Part shown: positions 27,758 through 36,471 of the stretch, piece by piece
Layout of the letters: every line of letters begins with the position of its first letter
Numbering within the stretch: the first letter of the stretch is position 1
NCBI GenBank assembly: GCA_020633325.1
Contig: JACKDX010000002.1
Location: 150,040 to 214,039 of the forward strand
DNA: 64,000 nucleotides
Source: Myxococcales bacterium
Lineage (GTDB): Bacteria; Myxococcota_A; Polyangia; Polyangiales; GCA-016699535
Direction: 5' to 3'
The notes under the pieces: generated by a model
What the model was told of the DNA's origin: nothing
The model's database searches: none
Seen by the model: the letters and a program-made list of their open reading frames with translations, nothing else
Position numbers and translations under genes: made by a program

Positions 27758-28177
27758 TCAGCGTTCGCGGATGCCCACATCGTCGGCAAAGCTCCCAATC
27801 GCACGCTCGGAAATAATATGTTTGGCGGTGGCCGCATTGGTGGCCAGAGGGATGTTGTGCACGTTGCAGATTCGCATAAGGCTTTGAATATCTGGCTCAT
27901 GTGAATGCTTGCCCAGCGGATCGACAAAAAAGAAAACGGCCCGGATCTGGCCTTCTGCGACAAGCGCCGCGATTTGTGCATCACCCCCTTGAGGTCCCGA
28001 GAGCACTTGGCGCAGGGACAAACCACAGTTCTCCTTAAGCACTTGCCCTGTGGTATTAGTGGCCACCAAGTCATACGAGCGAAGAATCTCGAAATGTTGC
28101 AAGGCAAACGCCACCATGTCGGCTTTTTTGTTGTCGTGGGCAATGAGGGCAAGGGTCTTGCGATTCTCGGCGGGCAT
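27758..28177 (-). CDS. mgsA: Methylglyoxal synthase
   Basis: ALIAHDNKK, ATNTTG, SGPQGGDAQI, FF.DPL..HSHEPDI, CNVHNIPLATN. Confidence 0.96.
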   Translation of the reverse strand: MPAENRKTLALIAHDNKKADMVAFALQHFEILRSYDLVATNTTGQVLKENCGLSLRQVLSGPQGGDAQIAALVAEGQIRAVFFFVDPLGKHSHEPDIQSLMRICNVHNIPLATNAATAKHIISERAIGSFADDVGIRER

Positions 28178-28487
28178 TAGGTGTCTTCTAATCGACGGCC
28201 TGAGAAGTGGCAAGGTACTCACGGCGCGCGGGTTGAAGCGCCGCCGGCGTGTGCTAGCTCAAAAACCATGCCTCTCCGATGCCAGTACATTTCTTGGTTG
28301 CTCGTTGCCTTATCTACGGCAGGCTACACGGTCAACACCAATTCCTAGCGCCTTGCGCCGACGGGTATACAAACTACAACTCTGGGTTCCTGTGCGCATT
28401 TTCTCAAGAGGATACCCTCTTCGCGGCAGCCAGGTTGAAATTACATTGATCGGCTGGACAGGGGTCGATTCGGTGCTAGTGCTTCAT

Positions 28488-29741
28488 ATGAACTACACCA
28501 TATCAGTACCCATTGTCTCGGGGCTTGCCCTTGCGTGTGCCGCAGCCTCCGGATGTGCCAGCCGAGTGGAAATGCAAGGCGACACAGACCAGTCTGGCCA
28601 GGCGCCGCCAATCACAACGACGTGTGGCAACTTGGGGGACAGCAAAGGGTACAATCAGGACCAACTCTTTTGCTATCGGGCCCTCGATCCATTGCCCACT
28701 GGCTGCGACAAGTCGTGGACCGATGGGGACGAAGACGTCACCTCGGATGACAATCAATGGGTCTGCGATACCTTTCTTGAGCATGCTGCGCCTAGTCCCG
28801 AGTGGAAGATTCTCAATCAAGCGGACAATGGAGATCTTGCACCGACGGTGCTTGGGGATGACATCGAGTGTGATCTTTGTATGGGTTATGCGCCGGGGGG
28901 CCAGCATCCCTCTGCGCGAGAAACCGTGCTTCCAGAGTATATGCTGGACGGCTACTGGCGCTTGACTACGCTGTTTGGCGACGGAATACCGATGTTTAGG
29001 CTGAAGACCCATCAAGGAAAGGTTGAGATTTTCCAATGTGTGGTTTGGGGGGGCAACTATCAAGGCAGTGTTGAAGTGGGAAACCTGTGGCCGACTAAGA
29101 TTCAATGTAACGATCTGCCTGCCGTGACCGGCGCCGTCGCTCAGCGCGCCGGGATACCCGAGGTAAACATCACTGTCGAAGACAAGGATGATATCTCTCG
29201 TCCGACGGCTGAGCTGTGGAATGGCGTCGCATACGACCCCGATACAGGTGCGCTGAACTTTCGCCAAGACGCAACCGTTCTCAAGGTGAAATTTGCAGAT
29301 CATATATCCGATTCAGTCATCAACCACCCTGTAGAACCATCAGGCGATTGGGATGTAATTGCCGTAGTGGCCAATGAAATTATTGCCCGCCGCAGTTATC
29401 ATCTGGCGCTCGAAGGCGATAGCGCGCGGGGCGACCTCGTAGCCTGTGAAGACAAGGAATGTTCCCCAACTATCACGGTCATTCAAAGTGAAGACCCGTC
29501 AGGCGGCTATCACATGGACGTCGATCTTGGAGAGTTTCCGCTCTCGTGGATATTTATAAACGAGAGTGGCACGACTTTAATTTCGGGGGAAACGCGAACT
29601 ATCAACGGCAGCACGATGATCACGCCCGGGGGCATGCTGGCCTTTTGCGAGGATTTCAGCGTGGGGAATGGTCTTTTATGGGTAAGGGCCTGTCTCACTC
29701 CGAGCGCAAAAGTGAAGCCGGCCGCTTTGGACGCGATTTAG
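28488..29741 (+). CDS. Hypothetical lipoprotein
   Basis: MNYTISVPIVSGLALACAAASGC signal/lipobox; Cys- and beta-rich body; the ORF extension to 28050 overlaps mgsA. Confidence 0.75.
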   Translation: MNYTISVPIVSGLALACAAASGCASRVEMQGDTDQSGQAPPITTTCGNLGDSKGYNQDQLFCYRALDPLPTGCDKSWTDGDEDVTSDDNQWVCDTFLEHAAPSPEWKILNQADNGDLAPTVLGDDIECDLCMGYAPGGQHPSARETVLPEYMLDGYWRLTTLFGDGIPMFRLKTHQGKVEIFQCVVWGGNYQGSVEVGNLWPTKIQCNDLPAVTGAVAQRAGIPEVNITVEDKDDISRPTAELWNGVAYDPDTGALNFRQDATVLKVKFADHISDSVINHPVEPSGDWDVIAVVANEIIARRSYHLALEGDSARGDLVACEDKECSPTITVIQSEDPSGGYHMDVDLGEFPLSWIFINESGTTLISGETRTINGSTMITPGGMLAFCEDFSVGNGLLWVRACLTPSAKVKPAALDAI

Positions 29742-29748
29742 GAGTGCC

Positions 29749-29777
29749 TTGACGTTTGCGCGTTTCGCTGCTAAAGT
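29749..29777 (+). promoter_or_regulatory. sigma70-type promoter of the his operon
   Basis: TTGACG-N17-TAAAGT; the predicted start falls at or near the leader ATG 29785. Confidence 0.75.
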
Positions 29778-29784
29778 GTCGTCC

Positions 29785-29856
29785 ATGATTTTTCGCGCTT
29801 TCATCGGCATGGTTCGCCATCATTCCGGCCATCCAGTAGGCCGGGTCTGGGCGTGA
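29785..29856 (+). CDS. hisL: His operon leader peptide (MIFRAFIGMVRHHSGHPVGRVWA)
   Basis: 23-codon ORF with CAT CAT TCC GGC CAT, between the promoter and a terminator upstream of hisG. Confidence 0.75.
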   Translation: MIFRAFIGMVRHHSGHPVGRVWA

Positions 29857-29879
29857 TGTTAGTGAAATGCCCGTAAGTG

Positions 29880-29905
29880 ACGCCGGCCCCAGGGTCGGCG
29901 TTTTT
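29880..29905 (+). terminator. Attenuator terminator (3:4 hairpin)
   Basis: ACGCCGGCC-CCAG-GGTCGGCGT followed by TTTT. Confidence 0.85.
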
Positions 29906-29954
29906 CGTTAAGCGCGCACGCGTCGGCCTTAGGGATGGCTCAGAAACAAGAGAG

Positions 29955-30839
29955 ATGACCATGAATGTCCCAAATAAGACCGAATCAGGTTTAAGGCTCG
30001 CCCTTCCCAAGGGCCGAATGGCGGACGGCGTGTTTGCGCTATTAGGCGATGCCGGCATTCGCGTGCGAACGGGAGAACGCGGCTATCGGCCGACTGTGTC
30101 TGTGCCGGGCTTTGAAGTGAAAATACTTAAACCGCAAAACATCATTGAGATGCTTCATGCAGGCTCGCGGGATATTGGGTTCGCAGGGGCGGACTGGGTG
30201 GCCGAGCTCGATGCTGAGCTGGTGGAGCTGCTAGATACGGGCATGGACCCTGTGGCGCTGGTTGCGGCCGCGCCCCGGGCACTGCTTGAGGGTGGCAAAC
30301 TGCCCGAGCGGCCCCTTGTGGTGGCTTCGGAATATCCCCGGCTGACCGAGCGCTGGATGAAGAAGCAAACGAGTCCCATGAAGTTCGTGCGTTCGTACGG
30401 TGCAACGGAGGTGTTTCCCCCTGAAGACGCGGACTGCATCATTGATATCACCCAGACAGGCTCGACACTGCGTGCCAACGGGCTTGGCATTGTGGATGAG
30501 CTGTTATCATCTTCAACCCGGCTTTACGCCAATGGGGCTGCCCTCCGCGATTCAAACAAACGCAAACTGATTGATGATTTCGTCTTGCTGTTGCGTTCGG
30601 TGCTGGAGGCCCGGGACCGCGTTATGCTAGAGGTAAATGTTCCGTTGGGACAGTTCGAGCAGCTGATTGCCGTGCTTCCATGCATGCGCAAGCCCACGGT
30701 GGCACGGCTTCATGGTGAAGAAGGATACGCCGTCAAAGCGGCCGTACCCAAGAATGCTCTTCCCGCTCTGATTCCCGCGCTCAAGCAGTGCGGCGGCACT
30801 GACGTGGTGGTGACTAGGCTTAGCCAAATAGTCCCCTAG
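29955..30839 (+). CDS. hisG: ATP phosphoribosyltransferase, long form
   Basis: [47 protein letters not shown]-terminal regulatory domain PTVARL. Confidence 0.98.
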
Positions 30840-30847
30840 GGGTTTCT

Positions 30848-32581
30848 ATGACCAACAAACTTCCTCTTCTTCCTTTGCCGTCCGTTGCGAACTTGGACAT
30901 TTACCGTCCGGGGTTCCCCAAGGATCCCGATCTCCTCCGACTTGACGCGAACGAGGGCATGGCTCCGCCTCATACGCTGCTTGAACGTCTGCTGAACGCA
31001 AGCACGGAGGTATTGCGCCGTTATCCAAGCGCGGCAGATCTAGAGCAGGCGTTGTCTAAACGCTTTGGGTTGGAGGCGGAGCAGGTATTGGTCACCGCAG
31101 GGGGAGACGATGCGCTCTATCGTGCCTTTCGCGCGATGCTCGATCCCAGCCGGGAAGTGATTCTCACGTTGCCAAGCTACGAAATGCTTGACAGGTACGC
31201 CATGTTAACGGGAGCCACAACGCATGTGATGGGTTGGCTCAAAGGAGAGTATCCCGTTAACGATGCCCTTTCGCACATCAACGAGCGCACCAGACTGATC
31301 GTCGTGGTAAGTCCCAATAATCCTACCGGCGGTGTTATCACCATCAAGGGCCTTGAGAGGCTCGCGCTTGCTGCGCCGCATGCGTTGATCCTCGTAGATT
31401 TGGCATATACGGAGTTTGCGGACATTGATCTCAGCGCCGCATGTTTACGGTTTCCCAATGTGCTTTCAGTGCGAACTTTTTCCAAAGCTTGGGGATTGGC
31501 GGGGCTGCGTGTCGGCTATGCCGTGGGCGCCCCTAGCGTGATCAATTGGCTGCGTGCCGTGGGCGGACCGTACGCTGTTTCGCGTTTATCGTTGCAGCTG
31601 ATGATGTGGCGATTGGAACAGCCTGAGGATGAGGTGTACGCATATATCAATCGCGTACGGCAGGAACGTGAGGCACTGTTTACGTTATTGGCTGAGCTTG
31701 GGACCGAGCCTGTGCCTTCTCAAGCCAATTTCGTGTTGACGCGTGTAAAGGATGCTCAGGGGCTACACCAGGCGCTCCTTGAGCAGGGCATCAGCGTGCG
31801 TTACTTCAAGACGCGGCCCGCGCTTAAGGACTACATTCGAATCACTTGTCCCGGTGTGCCCGAAGATTTTGAGCGTGTCCTACATGCGCTTAGACATGCG
31901 CTCGGGCACAAGAGCGCGGGCAACAAGGCCCTTCCCAAGAAAAGAAGTTCGACTTCCCTGCCCAGTCGAGAAGGGAACATCGTAAGTTGTAACAAAACGG
32001 CGCGCGGATCAGAGCTGACCCGCGTCACAAAGGAAACGCAGATTACGGTCAAGCTTATGCTCGACGGTGAGGGGAAACACGAGGTGCAGACGGGCATCGG
32101 GTTTCTCGATCACATGTTGAGCGCACTTTCCAAACACAGCCGGATGGATCTTCAGCTACGCTGCCAGGGCGACCTGGAGATAGACGATCATCACACATCG
32201 GAAGATTGCGCGCTAGCGTTGGGTGCGGCGCTCAACGAGGCGTTGGCCGATCGCAAGGGCATCGCGCGGTTTGGCTATGCGTATGCGCCGCTTGATGAAG
32301 CATTGGCTCGGGCGGTGATTGATTTTTCGGGGCGGCCCTACGCCACGGTCAGTCTTGGTTTGACACGGGAAAGCATTGGCGGCTGGGCCACGGAAAACAT
32401 GACGCATTTTCTTTCGTCGCTGGCGCATGCAGCGCGCGCTACCCTCCAAGTGGAAGTGCTGCGGGGGCTTAACGATCACCATCGCATCGAGGCGGCGTTT
32501 AAAGCCACCGCGTTGGCTCTTCGCCAGGCGATTGCCATCGATGGCAGTAACCAGATCCCAAGCACCAAAGGCATACTGTGA
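30848..32581 (+). CDS. hisC-hisB: Fused histidinol-phosphate aminotransferase / imidazoleglycerol-phosphate dehydratase
   Basis: [35 protein letters not shown], then [36 protein letters not shown] in one frame. Confidence 0.96.
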
Positions 32582-33186: not shown

Positions 33187-33941
33187 CGGTTCGAGTGATT
33201 CCTTGCCTCGATGTCCGAAACGGACGGGTGGTGAAGGGTGTAAAGTTCGGGCAGTTGCGTGATGCGGGTTCTCCGGCGGAGTTAGCAGCGCTATACGAAG
33301 AGCAAGGCGCCGATGAGTTGGTGATGCTGGATATCTCAGCGACGCCTGAGGGCCGAGAGACTCAAACGGACACCATACAAGCGATTCGCTCAGGGATCGC
33401 GCTGCCATTAACCGTAGGCGGCGGGGTGCGGACGCAAGCGGATGCAGGCAGGTTGCTTGGGGCCGGAGCCGATAAGGTGGCCATCAACACTGCTGCGGTG
33501 ACGAATCCTTCTTTGCTGGAAGCGATTGCCCAAAAGTTTGGCACGCAGTGCACGGTGATTGCAATCGATGCCGCCCTCTGCGAGGGCAATGAAGCAGATT
33601 GGGAAGTGGTGGTGCGGTCAGGCAAAGAGCGAACGGGGCTTGATGCGGTGGCATGGGCCGAGCGCGCTGAGGCAATGGGTGTGGGCGAGATATTGCTGAC
33701 CAGTTGGGATCGGGATGGCACGCGATCAGGGTATGACCAGGACCTCATCCGCGCGATCTCCATGGCTGTGCATATTCCGGTGATAGCCTCTGGGGGCGCC
33801 GCTCACGCCGAGCACATGGTAGAGGCGCTTCAGGCGGGGGCGGACGCAGTGCTCGCCGCATCGGTTTTTCATGATGGCGAGTACACTGTCGGCGAAATCA
33901 AGCAGGCGCTCAGCAACGCAGGTTTACAGGTGCGTCGATGA
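33180..33941 (+). CDS. hisF: Imidazole glycerol phosphate synthase cyclase subunit
   Basis: RVIPCLDV, GADELVMLDISA, LTVGGGVR, EILLTSWDRDGT, PVIASGG, LAASVFH. Confidence 0.97.
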   Translation: MLTVRVIPCLDVRNGRVVKGVKFGQLRDAGSPAELAALYEEQGADELVMLDISATPEGRETQTDTIQAIRSGIALPLTVGGGVRTQADAGRLLGAGADKVAINTAAVTNPSLLEAIAQKFGTQCTVIAIDAALCEGNEADWEVVVRSGKERTGLDAVAWAERAEAMGVGEILLTSWDRDGTRSGYDQDLIRAISMAVHIPVIASGGAAHAEHMVEALQAGADAVLAASVFHDGEYTVGEIKQALSNAGLQVRR

Positions 33942-35212
33942 TCATTCCTTCGATTGATTTGATGGGCGGACATGCGGTCCAGCTGGTTGGCGGGAAAAAA
34001 CTGCAAATCGATGCCGGTGATCCGTTGCCGATTGCCGAGCGGTTTAAGCTGGCGGGGGAGATAGCTGTCGTGGATCTCGATGCGGCCTTAGGCAAGGGCT
34101 CCAACCGGGAGGTGATCACGCACTTGTTGAACATTGCGCGCTGCCGGGTGGGCGGCGGCATTCGCGACATCGAGGCCGCGATACGCTGGCTTGATTTGGG
34201 CGCCCACAAGATCGTATTGGGAACGTCTGCTGTGCCCGAAGTCCTTAGCAAGTTGCCTCGAGAGAGGTTAGTGGCCGCGCTTGACGCCGTCGATGGCGAA
34301 GTCGTGGTGGAGGGCTGGCAAACCAAAACGGGTAGGGGCATCGAGGAGCGAATGCAGGAGCTTCGCCCGTGGGTGGGTGAGTTTTTGGTGACCATGGTCG
34401 AACGCGAGGGCCGACAAAAGGGCGCAGACATGCCGAGGGCCCATGCAATAATTCAGGCGGCCGGAGAGGATTGTCACGTCACCATCGCCGGAGGTGTAAC
34501 CACCGCGCAAGAAGTCGCGGAGCTGGATCGGTTGGGCGCTGATGCCCAAGTGGGAATGGCCCTCTATACGAATCGATTGCCGTTGGCTGATGCGATTGTT
34601 GCGCCGCTCAGTAGCGATCGGCCAGACGGGCTTTGGCCTACGATCGTCGCCTCGGAGCATGGCGAGGCGCTCGGCTTGGCGTATTCAAATCTTGCAAGCG
34701 TGAGTGCTGCCATAGACACGCAAACGGGCGTGTACCACTCACGCACCCGCGGACTTTGGCAAAAGGGCAAGACTTCGGGTGCTACGCAGGAGTTACTCAA
34801 GATCAGCGTAGACTGCGACAGGGACGCCTTGAGATTTACGGTGAGACAACGCGGGGAAGGCTTCTGTCACCGGGGAACCCACAGTTGTTTCGGCGATGCG
34901 ACGGGCCTGGCATTGTTAGAAAAGCGTCTGAGGACTCGCGTGTCTGACCCTCCGGCAGAATCCTACACAAAACGTCTGCTCGAAGATAATGCGCTTCTTT
35001 CCGCGAAACTGTTGGAGGAGGCGCAAGAGCTTGTGGAGGCCTCAAGCAGGGGCGAAATTATACATGAAGCCGCCGATCTTGTCTATTTCATGCTCGCAAA
35101 AATGGCCAAACACGCTGTGACATTGGCGGACGTGGAGACCGAGCTCGACCGCCGTCGCTTGCGTGTCACCCGGCGGCCGGGACATGCCAAGCCCTGGAGA
35201 AAATCACTGTGA
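33938..35212 (+). CDS. hisA-hisIE: Trifunctional fusion HisA (isomerase) - HisI (cyclohydrolase) - HisE (pyrophosphatase)
   Basis: IIPSIDL..VVDLDAA..VGGGIR (HisA); LWQKGKTSG..DCDRDAL..FCHRGTHSCF (HisI); SYTKRL..EEAQE..HEAADLVY (HisE). Confidence 0.95.
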   Translation: MIIPSIDLMGGHAVQLVGGKKLQIDAGDPLPIAERFKLAGEIAVVDLDAALGKGSNREVITHLLNIARCRVGGGIRDIEAAIRWLDLGAHKIVLGTSAVPEVLSKLPRERLVAALDAVDGEVVVEGWQTKTGRGIEERMQELRPWVGEFLVTMVEREGRQKGADMPRAHAIIQAAGEDCHVTIAGGVTTAQEVAELDRLGADAQVGMALYTNRLPLADAIVAPLSSDRPDGLWPTIVASEHGEALGLAYSNLASVSAAIDTQTGVYHSRTRGLWQKGKTSGATQELLKISVDCDRDALRFTVRQRGEGFCHRGTHSCFGDATGLALLEKRLRTRVSDPPAESYTKRLLEDNALLSAKLLEEAQELVEASSRGEIIHEAADLVYFMLAKMAKHAVTLADVETELDRRRLRVTRRPGHAKPWRKSL

Positions 35213-36471
35213 CGGAGATGTTGCGGAAGGTCGGCGCACAAGACATCGCGAGACTGAGTCGCGACCCTGTGGATCCGCAGACGTTCGCAGAGGCCTCCTT
35301 CGTCGTAGAGGATGTTCGCAAGCGTGGCGAAGTCGCATTACGCGAGCACTGCGAAAGATTCGGCGATCTGAAGCCGGATGAACGCTATAGCTATGGGCCC
35401 GCGGATCTGGCGTTGGCGCTCGAATCGATCACCGATGTTGAACGAGGACTCCTGCAACGGACCGCGGCGCGGATTCAAGTCTTCGCAGAACTCCAGCGAA
35501 GCGCGATTCAGGAAGTGCAGATGCGCGTTCCAGGCGGCACGGCAGGGCAGAGCATTGCGCCTGTTGAGCGGGCAGGGTGTTATGCGCCGTCTGGCCGTTT
35601 TCCGTTACCGTCGTCTGTCCTGATGACAGCGATCACCGCTAGGGCGGCGGGGGTCAAAGAAGTATGGGTGACTTCGCCCAAGGCCAATACATTCACTTTG
35701 GCTGCCGCGTCGGTCGCCGGCGCTGACGGTTTGTTCGCACTCGGGGGCGCGCAAGCCATTGCGGCATTGGCATATGGTGCCGGGCAGGTTCCAGCGTGTG
35801 ACGTCATTGTGGGGCCGGGCAACCGATGGGTGACTGCGGCGAAAAAAGCCGTCCAAGGCCACGTGGCAATCGATATGCTTGCAGGGCCTTCTGAGCTCGT
35901 GGTGGTGGCGGATCATGCGAGTAACCCGAGTTGCGTGGCTGCGGATCTGTTGGCGCAAGCGGAGCATGACGTCGATGCGCGCGTGGTGTTAGTCAGCTTG
36001 GATGAGAGCCTAGTGGATCAGGTTGTTGTGCACATCACAAGGCAACTCGAAGACCTGCCTACTGCGGACGTCGCGCGAGCCTCTCTGCGACACAGCATTG
36101 CAGTGGTCGTCGATGGTGTCGAACAGGCCGTCGAGGTGTGTGATGGGTTGGCACCAGAGCATTTGCAGCTATCGGTGGAGGATCCTGAACCCTTTCGCCA
36201 AAGGCTAGCGCACTTTGGCGCCTTGTTTAGCGGAGCCGCTGGCGCCGAGGTGTTCGGAGACTACGGCGCAGGACCTAACCATGTCCTGCCTACAGGAGGC
36301 ACCGCGCGCTTCACCGGTGGTCTATCGGTGCTTAACTTCTTGAGGGTCCGGACCTGGTTGCATCTCGACGACATGCATGGCGCTGCCACATTGGCACGGG
36401 ACGCGGCGGAGCTTGCGAGACTCGAAGGCCTGGAGGCCCACGCGCGCGCTGCGATGTTGCGCTATCACTGA
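35209..36471 (+). CDS. hisD: Histidinol dehydrogenase
   Basis: GCYAPSG, GGAQAIAALAYG, IVGPGN.WV, IDMLAGPSE, DLLAQAEHD, APEHL, GPNHVLPT, GLEAHA. Confidence 0.98.
   Translation: MTEMLRKVGAQDIARLSRDPVDPQTFAEASFVVEDVRKRGEVALREHCERFGDLKPDERYSYGPADLALALESITDVERGLLQRTAARIQVFAELQRSAIQEVQMRVPGGTAGQSIAPVERAGCYAPSGRFPLPSSVLMTAITARAAGVKEVWVTSPKANTFTLAAASVAGADGLFALGGAQAIAALAYGAGQVPACDVIVGPGNRWVTAAKKAVQGHVAIDMLAGPSELVVVADHASNPSCVAADLLAQAEHDVDARVVLVSLDESLVDQVVVHITRQLEDLPTADVARASLRHSIAVVVDGVEQAVEVCDGLAPEHLQLSVEDPEPFRQRLAHFGALFSGAAGAEVFGDYGAGPNHVLPTGGTARFTGGLSVLNFLRVRTWLHLDDMHGAATLARDAAELARLEGLEAHARAAMLRYH

Follow-up and report, generated by a model that had tools for sequence, protein, structure and literature searches.

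A probable histidine attenuator with a predicted leaderless or near-leaderless start lies 5' of hisG in a myxobacterium and has relatives in other phyla

Introduction

How transcription of a histidine operon might be matched to histidine supply by an RNA that offers the ribosome no evident binding site is the question raised by the DNA immediately 5' of a myxobacterial hisG gene. The window, as we call the whole 64-kb stretch of DNA analysed here, comes from a genome of 2.74 Mb in 4 contigs and holds a complete his operon, which extends to position 36471 and comprises hisG, a hisC-hisB fusion, hisH, hisF, a hisA-hisIE fusion and hisD (Pfam). A first-pass annotation, made from the sequence alone, had proposed that this operon is preceded by a leaderless histidine leader peptide and a classical attenuator, and had named RNA folding of the alternative structures and a comparative search 5' of hisG as ways to check the proposal. 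Here, we describe the sequence features, the folding energetics and the cross-phylum conservation of this his leader. We conclude that the element 5' of hisG is, with high likelihood, a ribosome-mediated attenuator that senses histidine and controls transcription of the his operon, and that it belongs to a conserved, apparently unannotated cross-phylum family whose members would have a leaderless or near-leaderless start.

Results

The leader ORF and its surroundings

The features of the leader are collected in Table 1. The 23-residue frame and its histidine codons 12, 13 and 16, all of them CAT, read as the first-pass annotation had given them. The probability of finding at least three histidines within five codons of a random 22-codon ORF is about 2e-3; the decisive support for the leader is its conservation. 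The three histidines are not all consecutive, giving the motif RHHSGH where the copy from the same genus has SHHHHGH, and relatives carry four to seven. The window leader is the most His-poor member seen and is structurally intact, which agrees with its earlier description as a compact three-His variant. With three non-consecutive codons, its sensitivity to histidine may be lower than that of its relatives.

Table 1. Coordinates of the his leader, its predicted promoter and RNA segments, and hisG
Feature	Position	Strand	Basis or remark
-35 hexamer TTGACG	29749..29754	+	promoter scan: 9/12 match, spacer 17
Extended -10 TGcTAAAGT (hexamer TAAAGT 29772-77)	29769..29777	+	promoter scan, TG flagged
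Leader peptide ORF, 23 codons + TGA: MIFRAFIGMVRHHSGHPVGRVWA, stop	29785..29856	+	ORF reading; homologous His-rich ORFs
Putative regulatory His codons CAT CAT (29818-23), CAT (29830-32)	29818..29832	+	codons 12, 13, 16
Segment 1, UCCGGCC	29824..29830	+	pairs with 29839-45 in untranslated RNA (MFE of free RNA)
Segment 2, antiterminator 5' strand: GGCCGGGUC + UGGGCGU	29839..29854	+	ribosome-mask folding
Inner-hairpin 3' strand AUGCCCG, stacks under antiterminator	29867..29873	+	ribosome-mask folding
Segment 3, terminator 5' arm GACGCCGGCC, common to antiterminator and terminator	29879..29888	+	
Segment 4, terminator 3' arm GGUCGGCGUU (29893-29902), then U-rich tail UUUUUCGUU	29893..29909	+	
hisG, long form (HisG + HisG_C domains), first gene of operon	29961..30839	+	Pfam

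Downstream of hisG, a single 577-aa product at 30848-32581 joins the HisC aminotransferase to the HisB IGP dehydratase, and a 424-aa HisA-HisIE fusion is encoded at 33938-35212. One frame across the HisC and HisB domains occurs in only a few loci among the relatives (same genus, L034, L071). The idea that the leader travels together with the HisC-HisB fusion was rejected, the hisG-hisC-hisB order being general and the true fusion restricted to those few loci. Upstream, a 563-aa ORF at 28050-29741 (+) ends 8 nt 5' of the -35 hexamer of the his leader; it contains no Pfam domain and has no terminator of its own before the promoter. The attenuator terminator may also end the transcript of this ORF, and some transcripts may enter the leader from it with a long 5' leader. 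Beyond it, a 613-aa protein is encoded on the opposite strand (26311-28152, -), with a full serpin domain in its C-terminal 370 aa (E 1.7e-109) and about 240 preceding residues that match no domain.

A promoter adjoining the leader ATG

The first-pass annotation had placed a TTGACG-N17-TAAAGT promoter so that transcription would begin at or near ATG 29785, and a promoter scan locates the same elements, with an extended -10 in addition. The -10 is separated from the ATG by 7 nt (gtcgtcc), which leaves no room for a Shine-Dalgarno sequence, and nothing resembling one lies within 14 nt 5' of this ATG. A consensus scan found two promoter-like sites in 29000-31000, the his-leader promoter being one of them, and only four ATG or GTG starts in the whole window have an adjoining promoter of such quality. 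Elsewhere in the window, GTG 63574 (+) lies 7 nt past a TTGACA-N17-GAAAAT promoter (10/12) and starts a reading frame of 142 aa or more that begins VPSRSQATPWAEQLALYRHYLHSER; it is possibly a second leaderless gene.

The arrangement recurs among homologous leaders, in which TTGACN is conserved at the same place. When a sigma70-like promoter with at least 8/12 matches was required, the -10 ended 5-10 nt 5' of the leader ATG in 35 of 44 homologs, as against 0.9% of 6,993 other ATGs from the same loci, and the most frequent gap between -10 and ATG was 7 nt. In Corynebacterium glutamicum, in which leaderless his transcripts have been mapped, the -10 precedes the start by 7 +/- 1 nt (PMC3896937). 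The predicted +1 of the window leader is A29785 or the nucleotide before it, and across the family, in which gaps of 7-9 nt are the most frequent, transcription may begin 1-3 nt 5' of the AUG and not on it; a transcript beginning at any of these positions would have no Shine-Dalgarno sequence. Comparative support for regarding the his leader as leaderless, as the first-pass annotation had termed it, or near-leaderless is strong.

The switch could instead be real and not leaderless, transcription starting further upstream or reading in from the 563-aa ORF, and the leadered RNA being translated independently of a Shine-Dalgarno sequence. The stretch between the stop of the upstream ORF (29741) and the promoter does contain no terminator, and initiation at the in-frame TTG 29749 would lengthen the ORF to 35 aa. 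That TTG, however, is the -35 box itself, the upstream genes are not conserved, and a leadered RNA would account neither for the absence of any Shine-Dalgarno-like sequence in the 14 nt before the ATG nor for the adjacency of -35/-10 and ATG, which far exceeds that at control ATGs and extends over several phyla. We consider a leadered transcript unlikely, and take the leaderless or near-leaderless start as our working prediction.

Alternative structures of the leader RNA

A terminator scan places a 10-bp stem with 7 G-C pairs and the loop CCAG at 29879-29902, followed by a run of five T residues at 29901-29905; its energy is -18.9 kcal/mol, and 58 nt separate it from the hisG start. The first-pass annotation had given its limits as 29880-29905. 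When the whole leader was folded at equilibrium with ribosome masks, the terminator won whatever was masked and the result was uninformative. Such an outcome is expected of a kinetic switch, and attenuation at this leader would accordingly have to depend on kinetics; we hence folded the truncated transcript instead, extending it to 29889-93, before the terminator 3' arm, and masking everything as far as 12-15 nt past the A-site codon for each ribosome position.

Three states were obtained in this way. In the free RNA, UCCGGCC of segment 1 pairs with GGCCGGG at 29839-45 (1:2; -13.2 kcal/mol for the 6-bp core alone), and the terminator 5' arm is single-stranded. With His12 or His13 in the A site, segment 1 is covered and an antiterminator of -25.3 kcal/mol forms, in which GGCCGGGUC (29839-47) pairs with GAC(g)CCGGCC (29879-88), stacked on UGGGCGU (29848-54) paired with AUGCCCG; it occupies 9 of the 10 bases of the terminator arm, and the last base of segment 2 is the U of the stop codon UGA (29854-56). 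With the ribosome on that stop codon, segment 2 is covered and a structure of only -4.1 kcal/mol is left. Both the pairing of CCGGCC (29825-30) with GGCCGG (29839-44) and the alternative pairing of the latter with CCGGCC (29883-88), which had been read from the sequence, thus appear in minimum-free-energy folds, and the ribosome positions give the expected 1:2, 2:3 and 3:4 states. A further pairing proposed earlier, GGCGT (29850-54) with ACGCC (29880-84), cannot form together with GGCCGG:CCGGCC and does not occur in the folds; its place is taken by GUC 29845-47 with GAC 29879-81, G29882 being bulged, and by the UGGGCGU:AUGCCCG inner hairpin. Between the window and the same-genus leader (L002), base pairs of this inner hairpin have changed in a compensatory manner, from C:G to U:A and from U:G to A:U. 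The window has a z of -2.4 for the energy of the stalled state, relative to dinucleotide-shuffled versions of segment 2.

These energies bear on the suggestion that the window holds a decaying copy, in which HH-S-G-H no longer usefully senses histidine and the terminator is left either as a constant, partial brake or as the terminator of the upstream gene. The richer HHHHGH of the same genus, the family norm of four to seven histidines and the small genome would fit such decay. On the other hand, the pairings are intact and strong in all three states, the promoter and the frame are intact, and a Gemmatimonadota relative (L135, 402-535) has a likewise His-poor leader, HHSHGH. The E. coli trpL leader works with two Trp codons. 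We regard decay as very unlikely, and a working attenuator with few histidine codons as the better description of the locus.

Conservation across hisG loci

HisG is mostly of the short form in the order to which the window genome belongs, only 4 of 41 relatives having the long form, and in all four of these hisG is preceded by a His-rich mini-ORF and by the same terminator. The leader of the same genus reads MFFGVSSCKSHHHHGHIKGRGRV and that of the same family MLLVVTFAAAHHHHRVFGRVMG. More widely, among 84 loci that encode a HisG at least 50% identical, 56 have a His-rich mini-ORF 5' of hisG; the carriers are found in Myxococcota, Planctomycetota/Phycisphaerae, Acidobacteriota, Gemmatimonadota, Spirochaetota and others. 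The comparative search thus found leaders in Myxococcota and in other phyla. The genes 5' of the leader vary among relatives and the leader always adjoins hisG, so the hairpin is not merely the terminator of a preceding gene.

The histidine frame, the terminator and the stalled-state pairing are all kept in the homologs. CAC and CAT interchange and the peptide varies in length, while the frame from ATG to stop is maintained, a pattern that reads as the signature of a translated frame in which the sequence outside the histidine codons is unimportant. The terminator core CGCCGG/CCGGCG is invariant across phyla (42-44 homologs), and the stem is 91.7% paired in 42 sequences, with covariation at its base, a value matched by 0 of 500 shuffles. 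Imposing a single antiterminator register on a MAFFT alignment leaves just 62% of it paired, since the register is shifted between lineages. When each homolog was folded in the stalled state, 40-41 of 44 had at least 60% of the terminator arm sequestered, with energies from -15 to -44 kcal/mol, whereas the stop-codon state gave mostly -0.1 to -9 and at most -15.6 kcal/mol. Since much of the arm is also paired in GC-rich shuffles (0.61 vs 0.79), it is the energy and not the count of pairs that carries the evidence: against dinucleotide shuffles of segment 2, the mean z of the stalled-state energy is -2.46, with z below -2 in 30 of 42. Segment 1, which the window has, is not universal: the antiterminator is already present in the free RNA of 24 of the 44 members.

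The window shares the core CGCCGG...YCGGCG and a GGCCGG antiterminator strand that includes or adjoins the stop codon. In its lineage the peptide runs 3-4 codons past the conserved GGCCGGG, and the window stop codon lies 12 nt 3' of the usual position in the family, inside the inner hairpin and still within the antiterminator strand. The leader stop in the family is nearly always UGA followed by UG (UGAUG; 29854-29858 in the window), so that an AUG overlaps the stop; this overlap is probably a by-product of the UGAUGG:CCAUCG pairing.

Other hisG loci look different. In L035-L043, which are Myxococcota MAGs with long-form hisG and no His leader, a shared TGCTAGCCT or TGCTAGGGT motif resembling an extended -10 lies a few bases before the hisG start, which suggests that hisG itself may be leaderless there and without an attenuator.

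Family models and their distribution

In the interval 28000-32000, a search of 4,227 Rfam families at E up to 10 returned neither the His_leader family RF00514 nor a T-box; the only match was a chance miRNA match on the terminator, which we discarded. Pfam and NCBIfam searches with three leader peptides, also at E up to 10, gave no match. By sequence, the window element is thus not a member of RF00514; in mechanism, we consider it very probably a classical attenuator.

These searches also speak to the notion that the RNA senses something else directly, as a riboswitch, a T-box-like RNA or a protein-binding element would, the His-rich ORF being incidental or untranslated. Its one attraction is the invariance of CGCCGG/CCGGCG from phylum to phylum, which terminators do not usually show and which is explained by the three-way pairing constraint on segment 3. 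With no Rfam family, the T-box included, at E up to 10, and with a His-rich ATG-to-stop frame, synonymous in its CAC/CAT usage and variable in length, as the sole feature common to the 5' parts, direct sensing appears most improbable. Sensing through a translated histidine frame remains our reading of the family.

A covariance model built from the His run through the terminator (R1) matched 36 of 401 Myxococcota genomes (32 of 255 genera), 23 of 301 from Planctomycetota and 32 of 201 from Gemmatimonadota, and the matches inspected lie directly 5' of hisG in all cases but one. The match in L123 is a plain terminator and was set aside as a false positive. Some genomes have several matches, four in G242 and two each in G431, G050, G277, G302, G569 and G621. 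In certain cases the second match is the palindromic terminator seen from the other strand; in others it falls on a different contig, where additional His-related genes may be under its control. To avoid circularity, a second model (R2) was built from 39 sequences, none of them from the order of the window. R2 matches the window at 29802-29909 with 33.0 bits (E 1.4e-6), its sole full-length match in the 64 kb, and scores 34-41 bits on three relatives of the window. The attenuator, which the first-pass annotation had placed in a myxobacterial his operon, is thus not specific to Myxococcota and belongs to a patchy cross-phylum family.

RNA and metagenome data

The sequence of the window was matched in DNA metagenomes only, from activated sludge and wastewater, and none of the RNA runs contained it. 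For L135, the sponge-associated Gemmatimonadota genome whose leader reads MSIFVRTATHHSHGHPREAAA, the one metatranscriptome found, from a sponge (X18), yielded short contigs with gaps at a depth of 3-5. These begin at position 462, 60 nt downstream of the predicted start, and reach patchily across the terminator and into hisG; the same metatranscriptome gave no contigs over the 461 nt upstream. Such coverage would fit both read-through and a start close to the leader, but is too thin to locate a 5' end.

Discussion

From the arrangement of the leader we infer its transcription start, the translation of its ORF and its response to histidine, in the following sequence of events. RNA polymerase would start from TTGACG/TGcTAAAGT at A29785 or 1 nt before it, and ribosomes would enter the ORF at this leaderless or near-leaderless end, with no Shine-Dalgarno sequence to guide them. 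With plentiful His-tRNA the ribosome would reach UGA 29854-56 and cover segment 2, whereupon the terminator would fold and transcription would stop before hisG. With scarce His-tRNA it would stall with CAU 12 or 13 in the A site, covering segment 1 and leaving segment 2 free to pair with the terminator 5' arm (GGCCGGGUC:GACgCCGGCC on UGGGCGU:AUGCCCG), and polymerase would read through into hisG. In RNA that is not translated, the 1:2 pairing would form and lead to termination.

Several observations place the locus in the attenuator class: histidine codons are clustered in a short ORF, an intrinsic terminator lies between that ORF and hisG, and in silico an exclusive antiterminator forms at -25.3 kcal/mol upon stalling, against -4.1 kcal/mol with the ribosome at the stop. 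The ribosome-mediated 1:2/2:3/3:4 logic put forward in the first-pass annotation draws support both from this folding and from the same architecture in the genus, the family, the order and other phyla. The R2 match, the terminator core, the -10 adjoining the ATG and the position directly 5' of a long-form hisG connect the locus to the cross-phylum family.

A more far-reaching proposal, which we offer tentatively and with some doubt, is that this is an old, undescribed RNA family that accompanies long-form hisG in five or more phyla and is built on a principle other than that of the enterobacterial attenuator. If that were true, the act of initiating at an AUG on the very 5' end would, without any Shine-Dalgarno sequence, link the first ribosome to polymerase, and the stop codon would be built into the antiterminator strand (family consensus GGCCGG-G-UGA-UGG). 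Since 24 of 44 members lack segment 1, the terminating ribosome would then be the main block to antitermination and, for roughly half the family, the only one.

Nearly all documented cases of leader-peptide attenuation come from Proteobacteria, a few Firmicutes and Actinobacteria, and the family would add five phyla, Myxococcota, Planctomycetota, Gemmatimonadota, Acidobacteriota and Spirochaetota. It would fill an annotation gap, the model matching some 8-16% of the genomes in a phylum, and would offer a clean natural case for the coupling of leaderless translation to transcription as well as a compact histidine-responsive part for organisms without genetic tools. As for the organism itself, a sludge myxobacterium with a small genome would make its own histidine and, if the predicted response holds, regulate the pathway by tRNA charging.

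His leader-peptide attenuators have been described from Gammaproteobacteria and three Firmicutes lineages (PMC9413887, PMC2965389, PMC4833913). The searchable literature, which did not include subscription papers such as Vitreschak et al. 2004, yielded no description of the present family, nor one from Myxococcota, Planctomycetota or Gemmatimonadota; the first-pass annotation likewise knew of none in Myxococcota. The reference system is the enterobacterial his attenuator (hisL; Rfam RF00514 His_leader), for which the model of Johnston et al. 1980 is summarised in PMC3896937 and PMC9413887. Like hisL, the window has a short ORF with clustered His codons before hisG and alternative 1:2, 2:3 and 3:4 hairpins with an intrinsic terminator, and the position of the ribosome is predicted to decide between termination and read-through. 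It differs in having no sequence or structure similarity to hisL and no RF00514 or peptide-HMM match, three histidines (HH-S-G-H) where hisL has seven in a row, and a promoter that adjoins the ATG, with no 5' UTR predicted, in place of a Shine-Dalgarno sequence in a 5' UTR. Additionally, its stop codon lies inside the antiterminator strand, its terminator core is conserved on its own terms, and its relatives belong to other phyla.

The His leaders of Firmicutes (B. cereus group, Peptostreptococcaceae, Erysipelotrichales) are lineage-specific (PMC9413887, PMC2965389). They resemble the present family in combining 3-5 His codons with an antiterminator and a terminator, in having been found by comparative genomics and in being absent from Rfam; they differ in phylum and sequence, and in that operons of the hisZ/hisS type are also regulated there. 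To our knowledge, PMC9413887 and PMC2965389 do not term them leaderless. Leaderless transcripts are known from Corynebacterium glutamicum (PMC3890552, PMC3896937), and the polycysteine uORFs of mycobacteria are leaderless short-ORF attenuators (bioRxiv 10.1101/834739). In those Actinobacteria, as is predicted for the window, a mini-ORF begins at the first base of the transcript and its amino-acid-specific codons control the operon, leaderless initiation being mapped there and deduced for the window family. The amino acid, the phylum and the RNA are different, and here a canonical terminator and antiterminator are conserved across phyla.
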